The translations under genes and the position numbers were made by a program. The notes beneath the pieces are model-generated. The model saw only the letters and a list, made by a program, of their open reading frames with translations. It had not been told where the DNA came from and did no database searches. From a virus (lineage: Duplodnaviria > Heunggongvirae > Uroviricota > Caudoviricetes), in IMG/VR virus record IMGVR_UViG_2609459854_000001, positions 1 through 38,666 of that record: DNA of 38,666 nucleotides. One strand, written 5' to 3'. Shown piece after piece: positions 9,255-36,157 of this stretch; position 1 is the stretch's first letter, and each line of letters starts with the position of its first letter.

Positions 9255-10250
9255 GTGACCGTGAGAGCACTACTGACCCCTGAAATTGCCCCGCGTATGG
9301 GGATCGTATTGTTCAGGCCCGGTTCAGAGCTGATGCCCCTGTTTATGCAGGGGCGTGTCCTGCTGGAGCCTGAGCCGGAGCGTTATTCATCTTTCGCCAG
9401 TGGTGCCGTTCCCGCGGCATCACAACCGCTGGCGGATGATCCTGCCGTTCGGGCCGTGTTCCGCAATGAGGCAGTGATCCGTCGTGCTGGTGGCGTGGAA
9501 TGTCTTGAAAGCTGGTTACTTCGTGAAAAGGGCTGTCAGTGGCCTCATTCCGACTGGCACAGCGAGAACATGACCACAATGCGACACGCTCCGGGCGCAA
9601 TCCGTCTGTGTTGGCACTGCGATAACCAGCTGCGCGATCAGTTCACGGAACGGCTGGAATCAATGGCAACGGATAACTGTGCCCGCTGGGTGTTGTCTGT
9701 TGTGCGCCGTGATCTCGGTTTTGATGATAGTCACGTTGTGACAATGCCGGAACTGTGCTGGTGGCTGGTTCGTAATGACCTGGCGGATGCCTTACCGGAA
9801 AGTGCAGCCCGTAAGGCACTGAGATTACCGAAGCCTATTGTGCCGTCTGTCACCCGGGAAAGTGACCTTGTTCCTTCGGTTCCTGCCACCAGCATCATCC
9901 AGGATAAAGCGAAAAAGGTGCTGTCGCTGGAAGTGGATCCGGAGTCGCCGGAGTCTTTTATGTTACGCCCCAAACGTCGCCGTTGGGTTAATGAAAAGTA
10001 CACGCGCTGGGTTAAGACACAGCCGTGTGCATGTTGTGGAAAGCTTGCTGATGATCCCCACCACCTGATAGGCCACGGTCAGGGGGGAATGGGTACAAAA
10101 GCGCATGACCTCTTTGTGTTGCCTTTGTGCAGAAAGCATCACGACGATCTGCATGCGGATACCGTGGCATTTGAAGAAAAGTATGGCTCCCAGTTGGAGC
10201 TGATATTTCGTTTTATCGATCGTGCGCTGGCAATTGGCGTGCTGGCGTAA
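9255..10250 (+). CDS. DUF968-like phage protein with a C-terminal His/Cys-rich nuclease-like motif
   Basis: 331 aa; C-terminal ...CACCGK...HHLIGHGQGG...KAHD...CRKHHDDLH; GTG start assumed, so the start is uncertain. Confidence 0.5.
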   Translation: MTVRALLTPEIAPRMGIVLFRPGSELMPLFMQGRVLLEPEPERYSSFASGAVPAASQPLADDPAVRAVFRNEAVIRRAGGVECLESWLLREKGCQWPHSDWHSENMTTMRHAPGAIRLCWHCDNQLRDQFTERLESMATDNCARWVLSVVRRDLGFDDSHVVTMPELCWWLVRNDLADALPESAARKALRLPKPIVPSVTRESDLVPSVPATSIIQDKAKKVLSLEVDPESPESFMLRPKRRRWVNEKYTRWVKTQPCACCGKLADDPHHLIGHGQGGMGTKAHDLFVLPLCRKHHDDLHADTVAFEEKYGSQLELIFRFIDRALAIGVLA

Positions 10251-10263
10251 GTGGAGAACGAGC

Positions 10264-11016
10264 ATGAACCTTGAAGCCTTACCAAAATATTACTCCCCAA
10301 AATCTCCAAAATTGAGCGATGACGCACCGGCGACAGGCTCAGGTGGTTTAACGATTACGGATGTGATGGCTGCGCAGGGGATGGTGCAGTCGAAAGCACC
10401 GCTTGGGTTTGCCTTATTCCTGGCAAAAGTTGGTGTTCAGGATCCTCAGTTTGCGATTGAAGGTCTGCTCAATTACGCGATGGCACTGGATAACCCGACA
10501 TTGAACAAATTGAGTGAAGAAACCCGGTTACAGATCATCCCTTACCTTGTGAATTTTGCCTTTGCTGATTATTCCAGGTCTGCGGCAAGTAAGGCTCGCT
10601 GTGAGCATTGTGCTGGTACTGGATTTCATAATGTATTGCGCGAAGTGGTGAAACACTCCAGAAGCGGGGAATCTGTTATCAAGGAAGAGTGGGTGAAGGA
10701 ACTATGTCAGCATTGCCATGGTAAGGGAGAAGTCAGCACCGCGTGCAGAGGGTGTAAGGGTAAAGGTATTGTCCTGGATGAAAAAAGAACCCGGCTTCAT
10801 GGCACGCCTGTTTATAAGATTTGTGGGCGTTGCAGTGGAAACCGGTTTAGCCGTTTACCAACCACACTGGCGCGGCTTCATGTCCAGAAGCTGGTACCAG
10901 ACCTGACGGATTATCAGTGGTACAAAGGATATGCAGATGTCATTGATAAACTGGTTACAAAGTGCTGGCAGGAGGAAGCTTACGCTGAAGCACAATTGAG
11001 AAGGGTGACGAGATAA
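10264..11016 (+). CDS. late-gene antiterminator (Q-like), putative
   Basis: Last early gene before a hairpin terminator and the lysis cassette; four CxxCxGxG Zn-binding repeats; assignment rests mainly on position. Confidence 0.5.
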   Translation: MNLEALPKYYSPKSPKLSDDAPATGSGGLTITDVMAAQGMVQSKAPLGFALFLAKVGVQDPQFAIEGLLNYAMALDNPTLNKLSEETRLQIIPYLVNFAFADYSRSAASKARCEHCAGTGFHNVLREVVKHSRSGESVIKEEWVKELCQHCHGKGEVSTACRGCKGKGIVLDEKRTRLHGTPVYKICGRCSGNRFSRLPTTLARLHVQKLVPDLTDYQWYKGYADVIDKLVTKCWQEEAYAEAQLRRVTR

Positions 11017-11120
11017 GCGATTTTCGCCGAAGATAATGACATAATACTTTTATTTTTCAAAAAATATGGATAAGATTTTCTCAACGATGGGGCTTGTGTA
11101 TCTATCGTTGAAGAATTTTT

Positions 11121-11150
11121 ACGACCTCGCTATTGCGAGGTTTTTTTATG
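11121..11150 (+). terminator. intrinsic terminator downstream of Q (tR-prime-like)
   Basis: GACCTCGC-TATT-GCGAGGT hairpin followed by TTTTTTT. Confidence 0.6.
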
Positions 11151-11159
11151 GTTTTTTTC

Positions 11160-11195
11160 TATTCAATCTACATCAAAATCAATGTGTTATAATGT
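11160..11195 (+). promoter_or_regulatory. putative promoter with extended -10 (TGTTATAAT) for the moron genes
   Basis: TGnTATAAT element about 40 nt upstream of the ATG at 11231; weak -35; not verified. Confidence 0.3.
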
Positions 11196-11230
11196 TTTCT
11201 GTAAAACAACATTAAAAACAGGAGAACATT

Positions 11231-11500
11231 ATGAAACTGACCTCTATCCATCTTGAAATACTACGTCGAGTGAATGAATTGCAGCCAAAGGATTCTAGAA
11301 TTCAGGCTGCATCATTACCTCATCTCTCAGCAAAAGAGGTTAACTTTGCTATTTCAGATCTTGCTGATATAGGTTTTATCGATGTTATACGAAGCAAATC
11401 TGCCGAAGGTGGATTGATTGCTAATGAGATAACGTCAAAAGGTTTTGCTTTTTTGAGTGAGATTGGCGCTGAAAAAAATTCATCGATGAGCACTCATTGA
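11231..11500 (+). CDS. small hypothetical protein (89 aa), moron gene 1
   Basis: AT-rich ORF with AGGAGA RBS, between the Q terminator and the lysis cassette; possible small winged-helix fold, no firm motif. Confidence 0.5.
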   Translation: MKLTSIHLEILRRVNELQPKDSRIQAASLPHLSAKEVNFAISDLADIGFIDVIRSKSAEGGLIANEITSKGFAFLSEIGAEKNSSMSTH

Positions 11501-11514
11501 TTTCTGCTTCAATC

Positions 11515-11532
11515 GGCTGCCAATTGGCAGCC
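11515..11532. promoter_or_regulatory. perfect 18-bp palindrome ggctgccaattggcagcc between the two moron genes
   Basis: 7-bp arms around AATT; could be a protein-binding site or a terminator-less hairpin. Confidence 0.3.
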
Positions 11533-11697
11533 TAAACTGTAAAGTGAATTTAAAATCGCCTACAATTGATGCTTAAATTTTGTTCTGTATCATCTGCAGG
11601 TTTAGGGATATCACAGTAGCTTTCTGACAAGAAGAGTTCTTTTCTTCTACCAATGAAGTGGTTATGTTAACCTGCGCTAAATCGAGACTGGTGCGGA

Positions 11698-12504
11698 GTG
11701 GAATCGAAAGTGTCATATTTTTACAGAAGCAAGAATATTTCAGGTGTTTCTATAAATGAAGATAGCTTGATTAGCTTAAGCACGGCAATTGTCGAACGCT
11801 GCGTTAAAATGAATGAGCAAGCTCAAAAGGAAAGTAGGGAAGTTTGTGCTCAATGTGTTTTTTTTATTTTGTTCGATGGTAAGGGGTATAAAGTTGATTC
11901 TATCGGTGAGCTTGTGAAATACTTTAGACAGGCCACTAGGATTGATCAAATAATTTTTACTATTGAAACTTATCAAAGTCGACAGTCTAACAGGATGAAT
12001 GGATCTTGGATGGAGCTACGAATTGATGAGAGGAATTCAAATAGCAGCACAATGATTGTAGCATCGGAAGATAATGAGTGGGTTGACTCGTTATGGATTA
12101 CGATTCAGGATTTACTTAACAAGTGCAAAAATAAATTTAGATTTTTTAGAACAGCTTGGACTATGTTAAGTATCCAGATTTCAGGTGTGACAGTTGGCTT
12201 TTTGCTTAGCTTATGGACAGCCTCAAAACTGGCGCCAAAACTATCAATCGATGGTGCATTTGCTTTATCATTTATTTGTATCTTTATTTTGTTTTCGAAC
12301 TTATGGAGCTTTGCTATTCCATTAATAATTAAGCTTATCGACTTTTTGTTTCCTAGTGTTAAGTTTGTTATTAATGGTAAAAATTACTTTCACTGGAGTG
12401 TCCAGGCTATAATTGGAGCGATTGCCAGTGCGGTTATATTGTATTTTATTAGCTCCATGTTGCTTTTTGCATTAGAAATGTTAAATAGCATCATTAAGAA
12501 ATAG
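11698..12504 (+). CDS. hypothetical membrane protein (268 aa; soluble N-terminal domain plus about 3 C-terminal TM helices), moron gene 2
   Basis: AT-rich ORF; hydrophobic segments near residues 160-180, 195-225 and 235-260; start uncertain (track start is GTG; first in-frame ATG at 11809). Confidence 0.5.
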   Translation: MESKVSYFYRSKNISGVSINEDSLISLSTAIVERCVKMNEQAQKESREVCAQCVFFILFDGKGYKVDSIGELVKYFRQATRIDQIIFTIETYQSRQSNRMNGSWMELRIDERNSNSSTMIVASEDNEWVDSLWITIQDLLNKCKNKFRFFRTAWTMLSIQISGVTVGFLLSLWTASKLAPKLSIDGAFALSFICIFILFSNLWSFAIPLIIKLIDFLFPSVKFVINGKNYFHWSVQAIIGAIASAVILYFISSMLLFALEMLNSIIKK

Positions 12505-12537
12505 TTAATGAATTAGTTATAATTACATCAATTCTAT

Positions 12538-12561
12538 GGCTGCCAAATGGTGGCCTTTTTT
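12538..12561 (+). terminator. intrinsic terminator after the moron membrane-protein gene
   Basis: GGCTGCC-AAAT-GGTGGCC hairpin (two G-U pairs) followed by TTTTTT; its stem resembles the palindrome at 11515-11532. Confidence 0.45.
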
Positions 12562-12612
12562 ATTCCTCTCATTTCTATTTCTGAGAGGACTCACTGCAAT
12601 AAGAGGTGGCTA

Positions 12613-12999
12613 ATGTCCGATCCGATTTCCGGCACAGGGTTAGCTGGTGGAGCCCTAACGGGCGCTAGTATTTATGGACTGCTGACCGGAACTGATTACG
12701 GCGTTGTATTTGGCGCATTTGCAGGGGCTTTATTCTACATAGCAACAGCAGCAGATCTGAGTGCATCGCGCCGACTAGCATATTTTATCGTGTCATATAT
12801 TGCCGGGATCCTTTGCTCTGGGTTGGTTGGCTCCAAGCTGGCGAACTTGACCGGATACAGTGATAAACCTCTGGATGCTATTGGTGCCGTAATCGTCTCT
12901 GCTTTAGCCGTTAAAATCCTGACGTTCCTGAATAATCAGGATATCGGCTCGCTGGTGGCGCTCATAACGCGCCGGGGAGGTTCAGGTGGAGCTAAATGA
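12613..12999 (+). CDS. holin
   Basis: ATG at 12613 with AGAGGTGG RBS; small protein with two or three TM segments and a charged C-terminus, immediately upstream of the endolysin. Confidence 0.6.
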   Translation: MSDPISGTGLAGGALTGASIYGLLTGTDYGVVFGAFAGALFYIATAADLSASRRLAYFIVSYIAGILCSGLVGSKLANLTGYSDKPLDAIGAVIVSALAVKILTFLNNQDIGSLVALITRRGGSGGAK

Positions 13000-13267
13000 C
13001 CCGACAGCAACTATAAATGCGCTGTTATGTGCTTGTGTTGTTATTACTCTGATGTTTTATCGTCGTGGCGACTCCAGACATCGACCGTGGATATCTCGCT
13101 TAGCGTGGCTGCTTACGGTCATTTATAGCGCCGTACCGCTGGCGTATCTGTGCGGTATCTACCCTTATTCATCGTGGGCCACTATCGTGGCCAACATTAT
13201 TTTCCTGTCCGTGCTGGTCGCCGTCAGAGGCAATGTGGCACGTCTGGTTGACCATCTGAGGCACTAA
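12986..13267 (+). CDS. second small membrane protein of the lysis cassette (holin/antiholin-like)
   Basis: 93 aa with two or three hydrophobic helices; GTG start with GGAGG RBS; overlaps the holin stop and the endolysin start. Confidence 0.5.
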   Translation: MELNDPTATINALLCACVVITLMFYRRGDSRHRPWISRLAWLLTVIYSAVPLAYLCGIYPYSSWATIVANIIFLSVLVAVRGNVARLVDHLRH

Positions 13268-14339: not shown

Positions 14340-14729
14340 TCAATTATCTCCTTTAAAGGAGTCGTATTCACCCCAATCAGCAAACCCAATCGGTCTTTTA
14401 GGGGTCTCTAAGCATAAGCGTTTTTTTCGGATTAGCAGGACATTTATTTGAGATACATGCTGAACAAGTTCTACAGGACTGCCATCCTCCAGAGTACCAA
14501 TGAAAGAAATTAATGATGGATTCCAGTAGCTTATGTCTGTGAAATGAAATTCAATGTTTTTACCAAAGCTAGCTAGTTGTCCTCCTACCTCATACTCTTC
14601 TTCAAGTTCACGGTGAAAATCATTTATCCAGCATATAAGGCGTCTATGAAATTCATTTGCAAGATTGTAGTCCTTTGGAACATATGGCTGTGAGTATTTG
14701 AGGAAATCATTCATGTAGTTATTTGTCAT
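14340..14729 (-). CDS. hypothetical protein (about 129 aa), reverse-oriented moron downstream of the lysis cassette
   Basis: AT-rich ORF convergent with Rz1; start set at the ATG preceded by AAGGA (track ORF extends to 14756); no signal peptide, no recognisable motif. Confidence 0.45.
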   Translation of the reverse strand: MTNNYMNDFLKYSQPYVPKDYNLANEFHRRLICWINDFHRELEEEYEVGGQLASFGKNIEFHFTDISYWNPSLISFIGTLEDGSPVELVQHVSQINVLLIRKKRLCLETPKRPIGFADWGEYDSFKGDN

Positions 14730-14827
14730 CAGGGCGTCCTTTACGAGCATAACCATTGTTACTTAACGGATTGAAACGCTATTAAATAACATGGTTTCTA
14801 TCATAATTTCTATCCGGAGTTTTCCAT

Positions 14828-34267: not shown

Positions 34268-36157
34268 TTAATCGTATTTTGGCCATACTTTCAATGCAAT
34301 TTCCCCCAACTTTTTACCTCGCTCCAGTATTTCACTCTCATCCCATTTATCCTTAAGTATAAGTGGTATGTTCAGTCGTAGATTGGTGTGGACGATGAGA
34401 GCATCACGTTTTTTCAGAAATACAGCATTCTGAACGGAACGGTTTACGCTAAGGTTAAGCAAAGTTAGATTTCCCAACGTAGCTATCGCTTGTTGCCGTT
34501 TCCTTACCAGTAGCTGTTCAGGGGTAAGATCGGTTCCAGACAGAACAATTTGGTTCATTACCGTAGCATCTGAATTTGTCACCATATGACCATTTTCGAG
34601 AGGCCAACAGGAATACCAACTTTGAGGCATAAGATGATCGATATCGAGATTAGAAAGATTTGGAACATCAGGCTTTTCTGTCTTCACTTGGCGACAAAGT
34701 TCTCTTTCAAGTTCCGTTAACATTGAGCGCATTTTCGGTGCGTCGAGCCTGCCAGGATAAAGTGGAGCATTGATGCAAGCGTTGAGAAATTCTGAGTCCC
34801 CAGGCCAACGTGAGGCTTCGCCATTTAAGCTATTGAGGATATTACGTAACTCAACACTGGAAATTTCCGTTTTAGACAAGTGTCGCAATACATTCATAAA
34901 TACATTGTTGTAATTCTTTGGCGTCAGGCCACATACGGATCTTCGTACTACGTAGGAGACAAGATCATTATACATGGCTGCTTTCTCATCATCGGCGATG
35001 TTAGCTATCGAAATGAACAAAGCAAGCGGATAGAGTGTCGTCACATCATAGGCTGCGATGCGATGTCTAAAGTGTGAGATGGGGGTTGTGCCAAAACCAC
35101 CAACCAATTCTTTATATTGTGATGCATATTGTTTGAGGCGCTTTACTTGCAGATCTGCTCGTTGTGAAGGCAAGTCCTTACTTACATAATCACGATACTC
35201 ATTGTAAAGGCGAGACAGATCAATTTCACGCTGCCTTTCTGATTGCAATGTCGCATGTACAAGCCACTCCATGCGTGGTTTATTAATACGTCCACGGCGT
35301 TGCTTTTCCGACCAGTATTTATCTTCAAAGATCTTCCACTCATTTTCATATAATTCAATAGCATTAATATTTTCATGCTCAGCGCACATAAAGATATAGT
35401 TGCGAATAAGATCCGTTGCATGAAGTTCCGCTCCTCGCCCATTTAATGTTTCAAAAATTATTTGGGCATCATCTTCAGCTTCGAGAAATATGCTTACCAG
35501 TTTCAGATCCGTCAAGACAGCCTCAATTAGTGCTACAGCATTTTCTTGTGGTGAGTGTTTTTCTATTTTAATCCATTTTATAAAGGCTTCAGTAAAAAAC
35601 CATAATGCCTCTAGTGACGGCGGGTGGTTGAAATGTTTACGTAACGTACCATGTTGCGTGAAGCTATCAGAAAATACATTACGGAGATCGTCAATATTAT
35701 CAACATTAAGACTTTGAATAAAATGAGTTTGATCTCGAAAAGTTGGCCACAGTTTGAAGCATTCTACCTTTTTATTTCTCATCGTTGCTTCGTTTGTATT
35801 TTTCAAGCAAGTCAATACTAACCCTTCCAGTTCAGAAAGGCCTGTAGCACGCAATGATAATCGAATGGATGCCAGAATATATTGAAGAGTGGTTAAACGT
35901 TGCTGGCCGTCAATAATATGTATGGTATCTACACCTAACAAGCTGTTTTTGAGTTGAGGTTCCAGCACCACCGCGCCGAGGAAATGAGGGGTTGGTTTTG
36001 TTCCCGAAAGTCGGCTCTGTGCTTTTTCGAAGATATCCTCCAACAAAGCTGACCATTGGTTTCGTTGCGTCCATACGTAGGCACGTTGATAGAATGGAAC
36101 ACGATATTGTCGTTGATTTTGGAAAATTTGCTGGATGGTTAGCGTTTCGGATTTCAT
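34268..36157 (-). CDS. DUF262/DUF1524 (GmrSD-like) type IV restriction endonuclease
   Basis: 629 aa; N-terminal ...FYQRAYVWT...IIDGQQRLTTL... (DUF262 DGQQR motif) and C-terminal ...DIDHLMPQSW...GNLTLLNLSVNRS... (DUF1524 His-Me finger); AT-rich; AGGTAA RBS. Confidence 0.8.
   Translation of the reverse strand: MKSETLTIQQIFQNQRQYRVPFYQRAYVWTQRNQWSALLEDIFEKAQSRLSGTKPTPHFLGAVVLEPQLKNSLLGVDTIHIIDGQQRLTTLQYILASIRLSLRATGLSELEGLVLTCLKNTNEATMRNKKVECFKLWPTFRDQTHFIQSLNVDNIDDLRNVFSDSFTQHGTLRKHFNHPPSLEALWFFTEAFIKWIKIEKHSPQENAVALIEAVLTDLKLVSIFLEAEDDAQIIFETLNGRGAELHATDLIRNYIFMCAEHENINAIELYENEWKIFEDKYWSEKQRRGRINKPRMEWLVHATLQSERQREIDLSRLYNEYRDYVSKDLPSQRADLQVKRLKQYASQYKELVGGFGTTPISHFRHRIAAYDVTTLYPLALFISIANIADDEKAAMYNDLVSYVVRRSVCGLTPKNYNNVFMNVLRHLSKTEISSVELRNILNSLNGEASRWPGDSEFLNACINAPLYPGRLDAPKMRSMLTELERELCRQVKTEKPDVPNLSNLDIDHLMPQSWYSCWPLENGHMVTNSDATVMNQIVLSGTDLTPEQLLVRKRQQAIATLGNLTLLNLSVNRSVQNAVFLKKRDALIVHTNLRLNIPLILKDKWDESEILERGKKLGEIALKVWPKYD

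Follow-up and report, generated by a model that had tools for sequence, protein, structure and literature searches.

The Escherichia coli prophage studied here (IMG/VR record IMGVR_UViG_2609459854_000001, 38,666 nucleotides, all of which is called the window below) is a complete lambdoid-type element that carries an AT-rich insert between its antiterminator gene Q and its holin genes. On the evidence of its sequence, this insert consists of two stacked, independent single-gene morons, gene A and gene B, rather than of one paired system. The slot that holds both morons has the Q/pR'/tR' late-control region on one side and the holin on the other, and gene B most likely encodes an exclusion or abortive-infection protein that would act alone. 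Taken as a whole, we give this account slightly less than an even chance of being right. Its anatomical part is held with high confidence, and the defence function that we infer for gene B is put forward tentatively, as the part that is most open to doubt. The features of the slot and its edges are the following.

10222-11016: Q antiterminator (PF03589)
11036-11065, + strand: candidate late promoter, pR'-like (ATGACA-18-AAAAAT), from a consensus scan; conserved in the sister prophage L033
11123-11150, + strand: tR'-type intrinsic terminator, an 8-bp stem with 5 GC pairs at 11123-11142 and then a T run (z = -4.25)
11148-12581, + strand: AT-rich replaceable insert (moron slot content), delimited by the drop in GC content and the alignment with L033
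11185-11193, + strand: extended -10 promoter-like element TGTTATAAT for gene A, a perfect match 38 nucleotides 5' of the ATG
11231-11500, + strand: gene A, soluble protein of 89 amino acids (phrog_32916, E 2.9e-61)
11515-11532, no strand assigned: perfect 18-bp palindrome GGCTGCCAATTGGCAGCC, a 7-bp GC-rich hairpin without a T run (z = -3.7)
11665-11673, + strand: extended -10-like element TGTTAACCT for gene B, 37 nucleotides 5' of its start
11710-12504, + strand: gene B, GTG start, predicted inner-membrane protein of 264 amino acids
12507-12523, + strand: 17-nucleotide copy AATGAATTAGTTATAAT of the promoter-like segment 11177-11193 (repeat family D4, 82% identity)
12538-12562, + strand: intrinsic terminator of the B moron, a 7-bp stem at 12538-12555 and then TTTTTT, 5' of the holin
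12613-12999 and 12986-13267: dual holin, Phage_holin_8 and holin_3_7

An earlier note, made from the letters of this DNA, had described here an AT-rich cassette with a promoter-like element, an open reading frame (ORF) of 89 codons, an 18-bp palindrome, a longer ORF and a terminator, and all of these were found where it had placed them or close by. Its view of the cassette as a moron-type insertion into the Q-holin slot was confirmed by comparing this interval in related prophages. The sister prophage L033 aligned with the window from Q through the promoter region to the tR' stem, diverged after about 11147, and became homologous again about 30 bp 5' of the holin start, at about 12582. Because L033, which has the Q/pR'/tR' region and the holins in common with the window, aligned on both sides and held a different, unrelated gene of 85 amino acids in between, the segment 11148-12581 is the part that varies in a slot with defined edges. 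A megablast search of 5,426 complete E. coli genomes matched a flank (Q or holin) in 2,576 of them and the insert in 41 (each time in single copy, on the chromosome and at least 99.5% identical), so that the insert is absent from the same position in close relatives. Its base composition also differs from that of the surrounding phage (GC 0.33-0.38 against about 0.50-0.59), the low values extending over 11000-12650 between flanks of 0.47-0.60. As for transcription signals of its own, the terminators are clear, and each promoter is a match to the extended -10 consensus, in one case conserved across homologues. Rfam and tRNA scans of the Q-holin interval returned nothing above threshold.

The hairpin at 11123-11150 marks the left edge of the slot. 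It had been taken for the terminator of Q (at 11121-11150), an assignment that we rejected: the element is common to L033 and other sister prophages and is part of the late promoter region. By its sequence it is a conserved tR'-type late-control terminator and the last conserved element of the backbone. The candidate pR'-like promoter would likewise belong to the backbone outside the insert.

The proposal that A and B form a two-gene module did not survive the comparison of homologues. The A-B cassette of the 41 E. coli carriers belongs to one lineage with at least 99% identity, and the 11 IMG/VR contigs with a near-identical B are the same 11 that have A; a twelfth (L045) has a 77%-identical B without A. 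Pairing is therefore confined to one nearly clonal lineage and is not seen across divergent homologues. Elsewhere each gene is found alone. Two Klebsiella phages each have a gene like A, with 34-37% identity, that stands alone between the holin and a Q-like gene. In one of them (L014) the gene has an extended -10 element of its own, TGGTAAAAT, and a canonical terminator, both read in the L014 sequence. Since A-like genes occur alone, B occurs elsewhere without A, and each has its own -10-like element, two stacked morons are the better description.

The opposite view, in which A serves as a repressor, antitoxin or adaptor of an effector B and the palindrome is its operator, we regard as improbable. 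It is favoured by the adjacent, co-oriented arrangement of the genes and by their constant company in the 41 carriers and 11 contigs. The perfect palindrome between them is typical of the operator of a dimeric helix-turn-helix protein, the hairpin after A has no T run and might be read through into B, and in the divergent prophage L006 a small gene also lies 5' of B. However, the co-occurrence is limited to that single lineage, and B has no A-like partner either in its 21 non-phage loci or in the prophages that carry a methyltransferase gene in front of it. The small protein of L006 (66 amino acids) has no similarity to A. A gap of 209 nucleotides, with a separate conserved -10 element for B, also lies between the two genes, and the palindrome lies about 135 nucleotides 5' of that element.

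The likeness of the palindrome to the terminator after B also bears on this question. The two agree in 16 of 19 bases, where 0.02 matches would be expected by chance, and the palindrome occupies the position at which the A-like gene of Klebsiella has its canonical terminator. Because of this likeness and this position, it can be argued that the palindrome is the terminator of gene A after loss of its U tract, and the same two facts count against an operator for gene A. Related copies of two segments lie just 3' of B (11177-11193 recurs at 12507-12523, and 11515-11533 at 12538-12556). It looks as if a promoter-plus-hairpin unit of about 50 bp had been duplicated, with gene A inside one copy.

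Both putative promoters are consensus matches. TGTTATAAT is the sole perfect match to TGnTATAAT in the window; since about 1.1 such matches are expected by chance in 38.7 kb, the evidence for it is its position and not its existence. The sequence AGGAGA follows at 11220-11225, between this element and the ATG of gene A. For gene B, the motif TGnTAAYCT was conserved about 37-45 nucleotides 5' of the start when the window was aligned with the prophages L010, L006 and L007, in intergenic DNA that is otherwise divergent. The terminator 3' of B was present in all three lineages compared (window, L010 and the divergent L006).

Profile and structure searches of both proteins gave little that could be named. 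The protein encoded by gene A has no hydrophobic segment. It matched DUF2513 at E 2.4e-4 and 21.8 bits, below the Pfam gathering threshold of 29.6, and its Klebsiella homologue did so weakly as well (17.5 bits); other weak, sub-threshold matches were to HTH_45, Lrs14/MarR, the RPC39 winged helix and MarR structures. Gene A thus probably encodes a winged helix-turn-helix protein, which presumably binds DNA. With small winged-helix proteins of the DUF2513 and MarR-like kind it has in common its length, the predicted helix-turn-helix-wing layout and a weak profile likeness, although all its scores lie below curated thresholds and DUF2513 is itself a family without an assigned function.

Both ORFs are real genes as judged from their matches to PHROG families, that of B being phrog_30208, for which no function is assigned. 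The start of B is the GTG at 11710 and not the codon at 11698, since divergent homologues begin there (M-x-x-[FY]-x-R), and the RefSeq annotation agrees. The earlier note had given B 268 amino acids, which is thereby corrected to 264; its outline of a soluble N-terminal domain followed by about three transmembrane (TM) helices was retained in our model. The AlphaFold2 model of B, built from a 26-sequence alignment, reached a mean predicted local distance difference test score (pLDDT) of 87.6 and a predicted template modelling score (pTM) of 0.72. Its alpha/beta domain, at residues about 1-140, is built of three long helices and seven or eight strands; a basic linker (KCKNKFRFFR) leads from there to long C-terminal helices at 149-177, 183-213 and 229-263. 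Hydropathy peaks correspond to TM2 and TM3, while TM1 stays under the Kyte-Doolittle cut-off of 1.6. As hydropathy and the basic residues before TM1 fit the positive-inside rule, the protein is consistent with an N-in topology in which the alpha/beta domain would be cytoplasmic.

Conservation in the B family is concentrated at few places. D56 is invariant within an I-R-F-D-x-K-G-Y hairpin; TM1 has Q156 followed by a glycine-zipper-like stripe of small residues at 159/163/167/171/175 (G159, G163, S167, A171 and A175); TM2 has S196-N197-x-W199 in mid-helix (the FSNxW motif); and P215 and F219 stand in the TM2-TM3 loop, FPN(I/V)xF, which is predicted to be cytoplasmic. Stripes of small residues together with buried polar residues are typical of tightly packed, often homo-oligomeric helices that form channels. 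A side observation concerns the enterobacterial prophage clade, in which positions 7 and 54 of B are S7 and L54 (codons 11728-11730 and 11869-11871), where the family has D in 90% and R in 88%; a lost salt bridge, that is, a paired substitution between adjacent strands, is possible.

The size of the B family was taken from a full hidden Markov model (HMM) scan of 1.84 billion representatives, which gave 230 clusters at E<=1e-3, 127 of them at E<=1e-30 (a word-indexed search of B gave 9 clusters). Nearly all clusters are 250-270 amino acids long and aligned end to end, and none has a Pfam domain or a name beyond 'membrane domain protein'. Gene B itself had no match in Pfam, NCBIfam or PDB sequences. 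No Pfam family, SLATT included, was found for B or in a scan of 58 family members, noise-level holin matches aside. Searches with tblastn returned no match to B in 50,697 phage genomes or 72,556 plasmids, and its structure model gave no convincing fold match and no recognisable transporter or channel fold. In the literature, searches by RefSeq accessions, DUF2513 and Q-holin morons or defence found nothing describing gene A or B; HepS (PMC13043305) and Tai (PMC11364771), which we examined, proved unrelated.

In other enterobacterial prophages, homologues of B with 52-79% identity lie immediately 5' of the holin. They do so next to three families of Q (PF06323 and PF06530 besides the PF03589 of the window) and two holin types (Phage_holin_8/3_7 and Phage_holin_2_1), and the gene before B is either an N6_N4 methyltransferase or the 66-amino-acid protein of L006. 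Five prophages (L007, L009, L010, L011 and L060) encode an N6_N4 DNA methyltransferase of 348-357 amino acids in the space from Q to the B homologue. L006 and L007 are essentially alike except that only L007 has this gene, placed between B and a small gene common to both, which, as far as the sequences tell, again shows cassette-wise assembly of the slot.

With such a position, B might be thought a lysis accessory, namely an antiholin, a regulator of lysis timing or a membrane partner of the holin. B stands immediately 5' of a holin in every prophage context found, is a predicted three-TM inner-membrane protein, and, under antitermination by Q, is expected to share a transcript with the holins. 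We nevertheless consider this quite unlikely. An intrinsic terminator separates B from the holin in the three lineages, the two holin types that B accompanies are unrelated, and most members of the family lie in non-phage loci without any lysis genes. As regards homology to lysis or virion proteins, none was found in Pfam, in PHROGs or in the 58-member scan, in which holin matches were at noise level (2 of 58 members, E 0.02-0.06). Nor is the insert a conserved component of the late operon, since it is missing from sister prophages whose holins are the same.

Outside phages, a search of GTDB representatives with a 7-sequence alignment found B homologues in Methylobacter, Gallionella, Thiobacillus, Methyloversatilis, Thiomicrorhabdus, Moraxellaceae, Methylophilaceae, Nitrospira/Nitrospiraceae and a Bacteroidota metagenome-assembled genome. 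The 21 distinct non-phage loci show no recurrent partner gene. At two of them (L031 and L057) AbiEi/AbiEii lies directly 5' of the homologue, L057 having PDC-S27 as well. A third (L003) has an NsnA/PD-T4-2_A-like GmrSD_N gene, a HEPN gene and a TumE module nearby, and at a fourth (L029) a TIR-effector-like gene lies directly 3' of the homologue, on a contig that carries a TraM homologue and resembles a conjugative transposon. Further neighbours are SocA/Panacea (L005), a HigBA-like Gp49/HTH_37 pair (L020), YafQ/RelB and RhuM (again L031), an antitoxin with a DDE transposase (L004) and an IS200-like transposase (L018). In Gallionella sp. UBA4121 (L016, 5500-8836) the homologue lies in a row of short ORFs on the same strand; the upstream ORF matched PF21648, 'integron cassette protein', at E 5e-40, and an attC-like imperfect inverted repeat follows the stop codon of B, which suggests that B may be an integron cassette there. 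A 117-amino-acid MarR-like gene 5' of the L003 homologue was considered as an equivalent of A and rejected; as it abuts the TumE toxin gene with a gap of 3 nucleotides, it is more simply the partner of TumE.

In numbers, recognised defence genes (AbiE, PD-T4-2/NsnA-like, TIR, PDC-S27) lie within three genes of B at 4 of the 21 loci. Loci with defence or toxin-antitoxin genes number 7 of 21, or 9 of 21 if L016 and L018, which have mobile-element hallmarks only, are added. These neighbour counts are raw, with no background rate beside them, and 13 loci were scanned for immediate neighbours only; the association of B with defence and toxin-antitoxin neighbours is suggestive.

These same loci bear on the most serious alternative, according to which B is a lysogenic-conversion or host-physiology factor (a channel, a transporter, or a protein of stress response or envelope) that hitch-hikes on mobile elements, A being an unrelated small regulator. 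Many homologues are singletons among the housekeeping genes of free-living chemolithotrophs and methylotrophs, with neighbours such as succinate dehydrogenase, RecG/chorismate lyase, BioD, poly(A) polymerase and the NusA/IF2 region. B has no homology to any defence family, and the conserved polar residues within its membrane part would suit a channel equally well. On the other hand, B turns up patchily and on mobile DNA (a phage slot, an integron-like array and a contig like a conjugative transposon), AbiE, TIR, GmrSD-like or toxin-antitoxin genes adjoin it in the 7 loci counted above, and the model lacks a transporter or channel fold that we could recognise. We consider this explanation unlikely, though well ahead of the other alternatives.

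A last possibility, that A and B are decaying or non-functional cargo, is very improbable and largely refuted by conservation. To be sure, no function is assigned to them, and in most carriers the prophage is probably degraded. Among the matches listed, those that include terminase come from 14 of the 41 carriers, 10 of which match over the whole DUF968-to-terminase block. Of the other 27, the two loci inspected (L002, NZ_CP162303.1, and L063, NZ_CP104536.1) are decayed remnants at tRNA-Pro between narP and yejM, with Q truncated and all structural genes deleted. Yet gene A, gene B, both holins, the endolysin, the DUF6173 gene and the GmrSD gene are intact there, and in each carrier locus inspected both A and B are intact coding sequences. 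B is full length at no less than 99.5% nucleotide identity in all 41 carriers, and it is conserved at full length in about 230 clusters from several phyla, as are the regulatory elements among its relatives. Between the window and the 78%-identical L010 homologue the ratio of non-synonymous to synonymous divergence (dN/dS) is 0.16, which indicates purifying selection. In the same comparison (window 11710-12504 with L010 6037-6831), synonymous divergence is 1.43 in the half of B that encodes the N-terminal domain and 0.36 in the TM half. Because the halves differ about four times in this measure, a recombination breakpoint inside gene B is indicated, and the 3' half, the terminator and the holin would be of more recent common ancestry.

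The reading that we prefer, two morons with B as a self-contained exclusion or abortive-infection protein, would work as follows. Moron 1 is gene A with its perfect extended -10 element and a hairpin without a T run in the terminator position; its product is presumed to bind DNA. Moron 2 would be gene B with its conserved extended -10 element and its intrinsic terminator. In the lysogen each gene would be transcribed from its own promoter, and the terminator at 12538-12562 would keep this transcription out of the holin gene and so shield it. During lytic growth, polymerase starting at pR' and modified by Q would pass the palindrome and both the tR' and the B terminators; this is proposed because Q-modified RNA polymerase is known to read through terminators. 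As the functional core, B would sense an infection cue with its cytoplasmic alpha/beta domain, which may be coupled to the TM helices through the basic linker and the conserved loop. The TM bundle, probably as a homo-oligomer, would then permeabilise or disturb the inner membrane (abortive infection) or block genome entry (exclusion).

As an abortive-infection or exclusion determinant B is plausible from its genomic neighbourhoods, and this part of the earlier note stood, while the two-gene form in which it was cast did not. Two further observations were counted in favour of defence: A and B are intact in the decayed remnants with truncated Q, and GmrSD genes occur both on the window prophage and, as GmrSD_N with HEPN, beside B in L003. 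Several points weigh against it. Neither gene had a PADLOC-DB v2.0.0 match at E<=1 (5,027 models), and the lack of Pfam, NCBIfam and PDB matches for B tells in the same direction. About two thirds of its non-phage loci have only housekeeping or unrelated immediate neighbours, with no background rate for comparison. Retention in the remnants may reflect clonal inheritance, the lysis genes being intact there too. The winged-helix assignment of gene A lies under every curated threshold, and the promoters are known from consensus alone, one TGnTATAAT per window being what chance would give.

Phage morons in the sense of Juhala and Hendrix are known from comparisons of HK97 and HK022, and Stx phages carry stx and nanS as cargo in the Q-S interval. 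HK97 gp15 was reportedly described as a superinfection-exclusion moron by Cumby et al. in 2012. Like the insert, all these are extra genes, present or absent between homologous phages, with a GC content below that of the backbone. Classic morons further resemble it in having a promoter-like element and a terminator of their own within the late operon and in encoding a membrane protein. In contrast to them, the insert holds two separate morons stacked, and the B family is mostly non-phage. From the class of HK97 gp15, which was not itself compared, B differs in having no function-assigned PHROG match and in its cytoplasmic domain of 140 residues.

Two kinds of membrane-acting defence systems offer further parallels. 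RexA/RexB of lambda is an abortive-infection system of a sensor plus a membrane effector that is expressed from the prophage and could depolarise the cell. As proposed here for B, it couples a cytoplasmic sensing part to a multi-TM inner-membrane part; B, however, is one polypeptide with no obligatory partner (A not being a conserved one) and no PADLOC match. The SLATT/2TM and 4TM effectors of CBASS and Pycsar and the 2TM effectors of retrons are single-protein membrane effectors that resemble B in their short TM bundle, conserved polar and small residues, cytoplasmic domain and defence neighbourhoods. They differ from it in that B has no SLATT or PADLOC match, no associated enzyme that generates a signal, and three TM helices with FSNxW.

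An AT-rich moron that encodes a membrane protein in the Q-S slot is well known. What is new is the B family, which is unnamed, absent from the catalogues of defence systems and lacking any fold relative that could be recognised, together with the clean evidence for its movement as an autonomous cassette. Candidate families of this sort are being described in large number. The B family may be a hitherto undescribed kind of anti-phage system that acts at the membrane as a single protein, with a three-helix glycine-zipper pore and a sensor domain whose fold has no close solved relative. It would travel as a promoter-gene-terminator cassette among the Q-holin slots of phages, conjugative elements, integron-like arrays and defence islands of several phyla; this broad claim we consider doubtful, and more so than the defence function as such. 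Should B prove to be a protein of defence or exclusion, PADLOC, Pfam and NCBIfam have missed a compact, membrane-acting one-gene family, whose roughly 230 clusters come from Proteobacteria, Nitrospira and Bacteroidota; if not, B is an ordinary moron of unassigned function. The locus also points to the Q-holin slot of lambdoid prophages as a stackable cassette site at which self-contained promoter-gene-terminator units, their promoters putative, are exchanged. D56, Q156, the stripe G159/G163/S167/A171 and S196-N197-x-W199 are immediate targets for mutation.

The rest of the window holds early genes, a GH19 endolysin, and terminase and structural genes. Features away from the slot are these.

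1317-2447: integrase
34268-36157, - strand: GmrSD type IV restriction enzyme of 629 amino acids (GmrSD_N E 1.4e-33, GmrSD_C E 3.8e-19)

The GmrSD gene is recognised defence cargo of this prophage and lies in the AT-rich right end of the element. A second AT-rich patch (GC about 0.38-0.41) contains a DUF6173 gene on the - strand at 14340-14756 (PF19670, E 3.8e-21). This gene is placed between the lysis genes and the HNH/terminase genes, on the opposite strand, is kept in the decayed prophage remnants too, and looks like another moron-type insert. Just beyond the integrase end of the prophage, an ORF of 319 amino acids on the - strand (1-960, GC 0.325, without a Pfam match) is possibly further island cargo.

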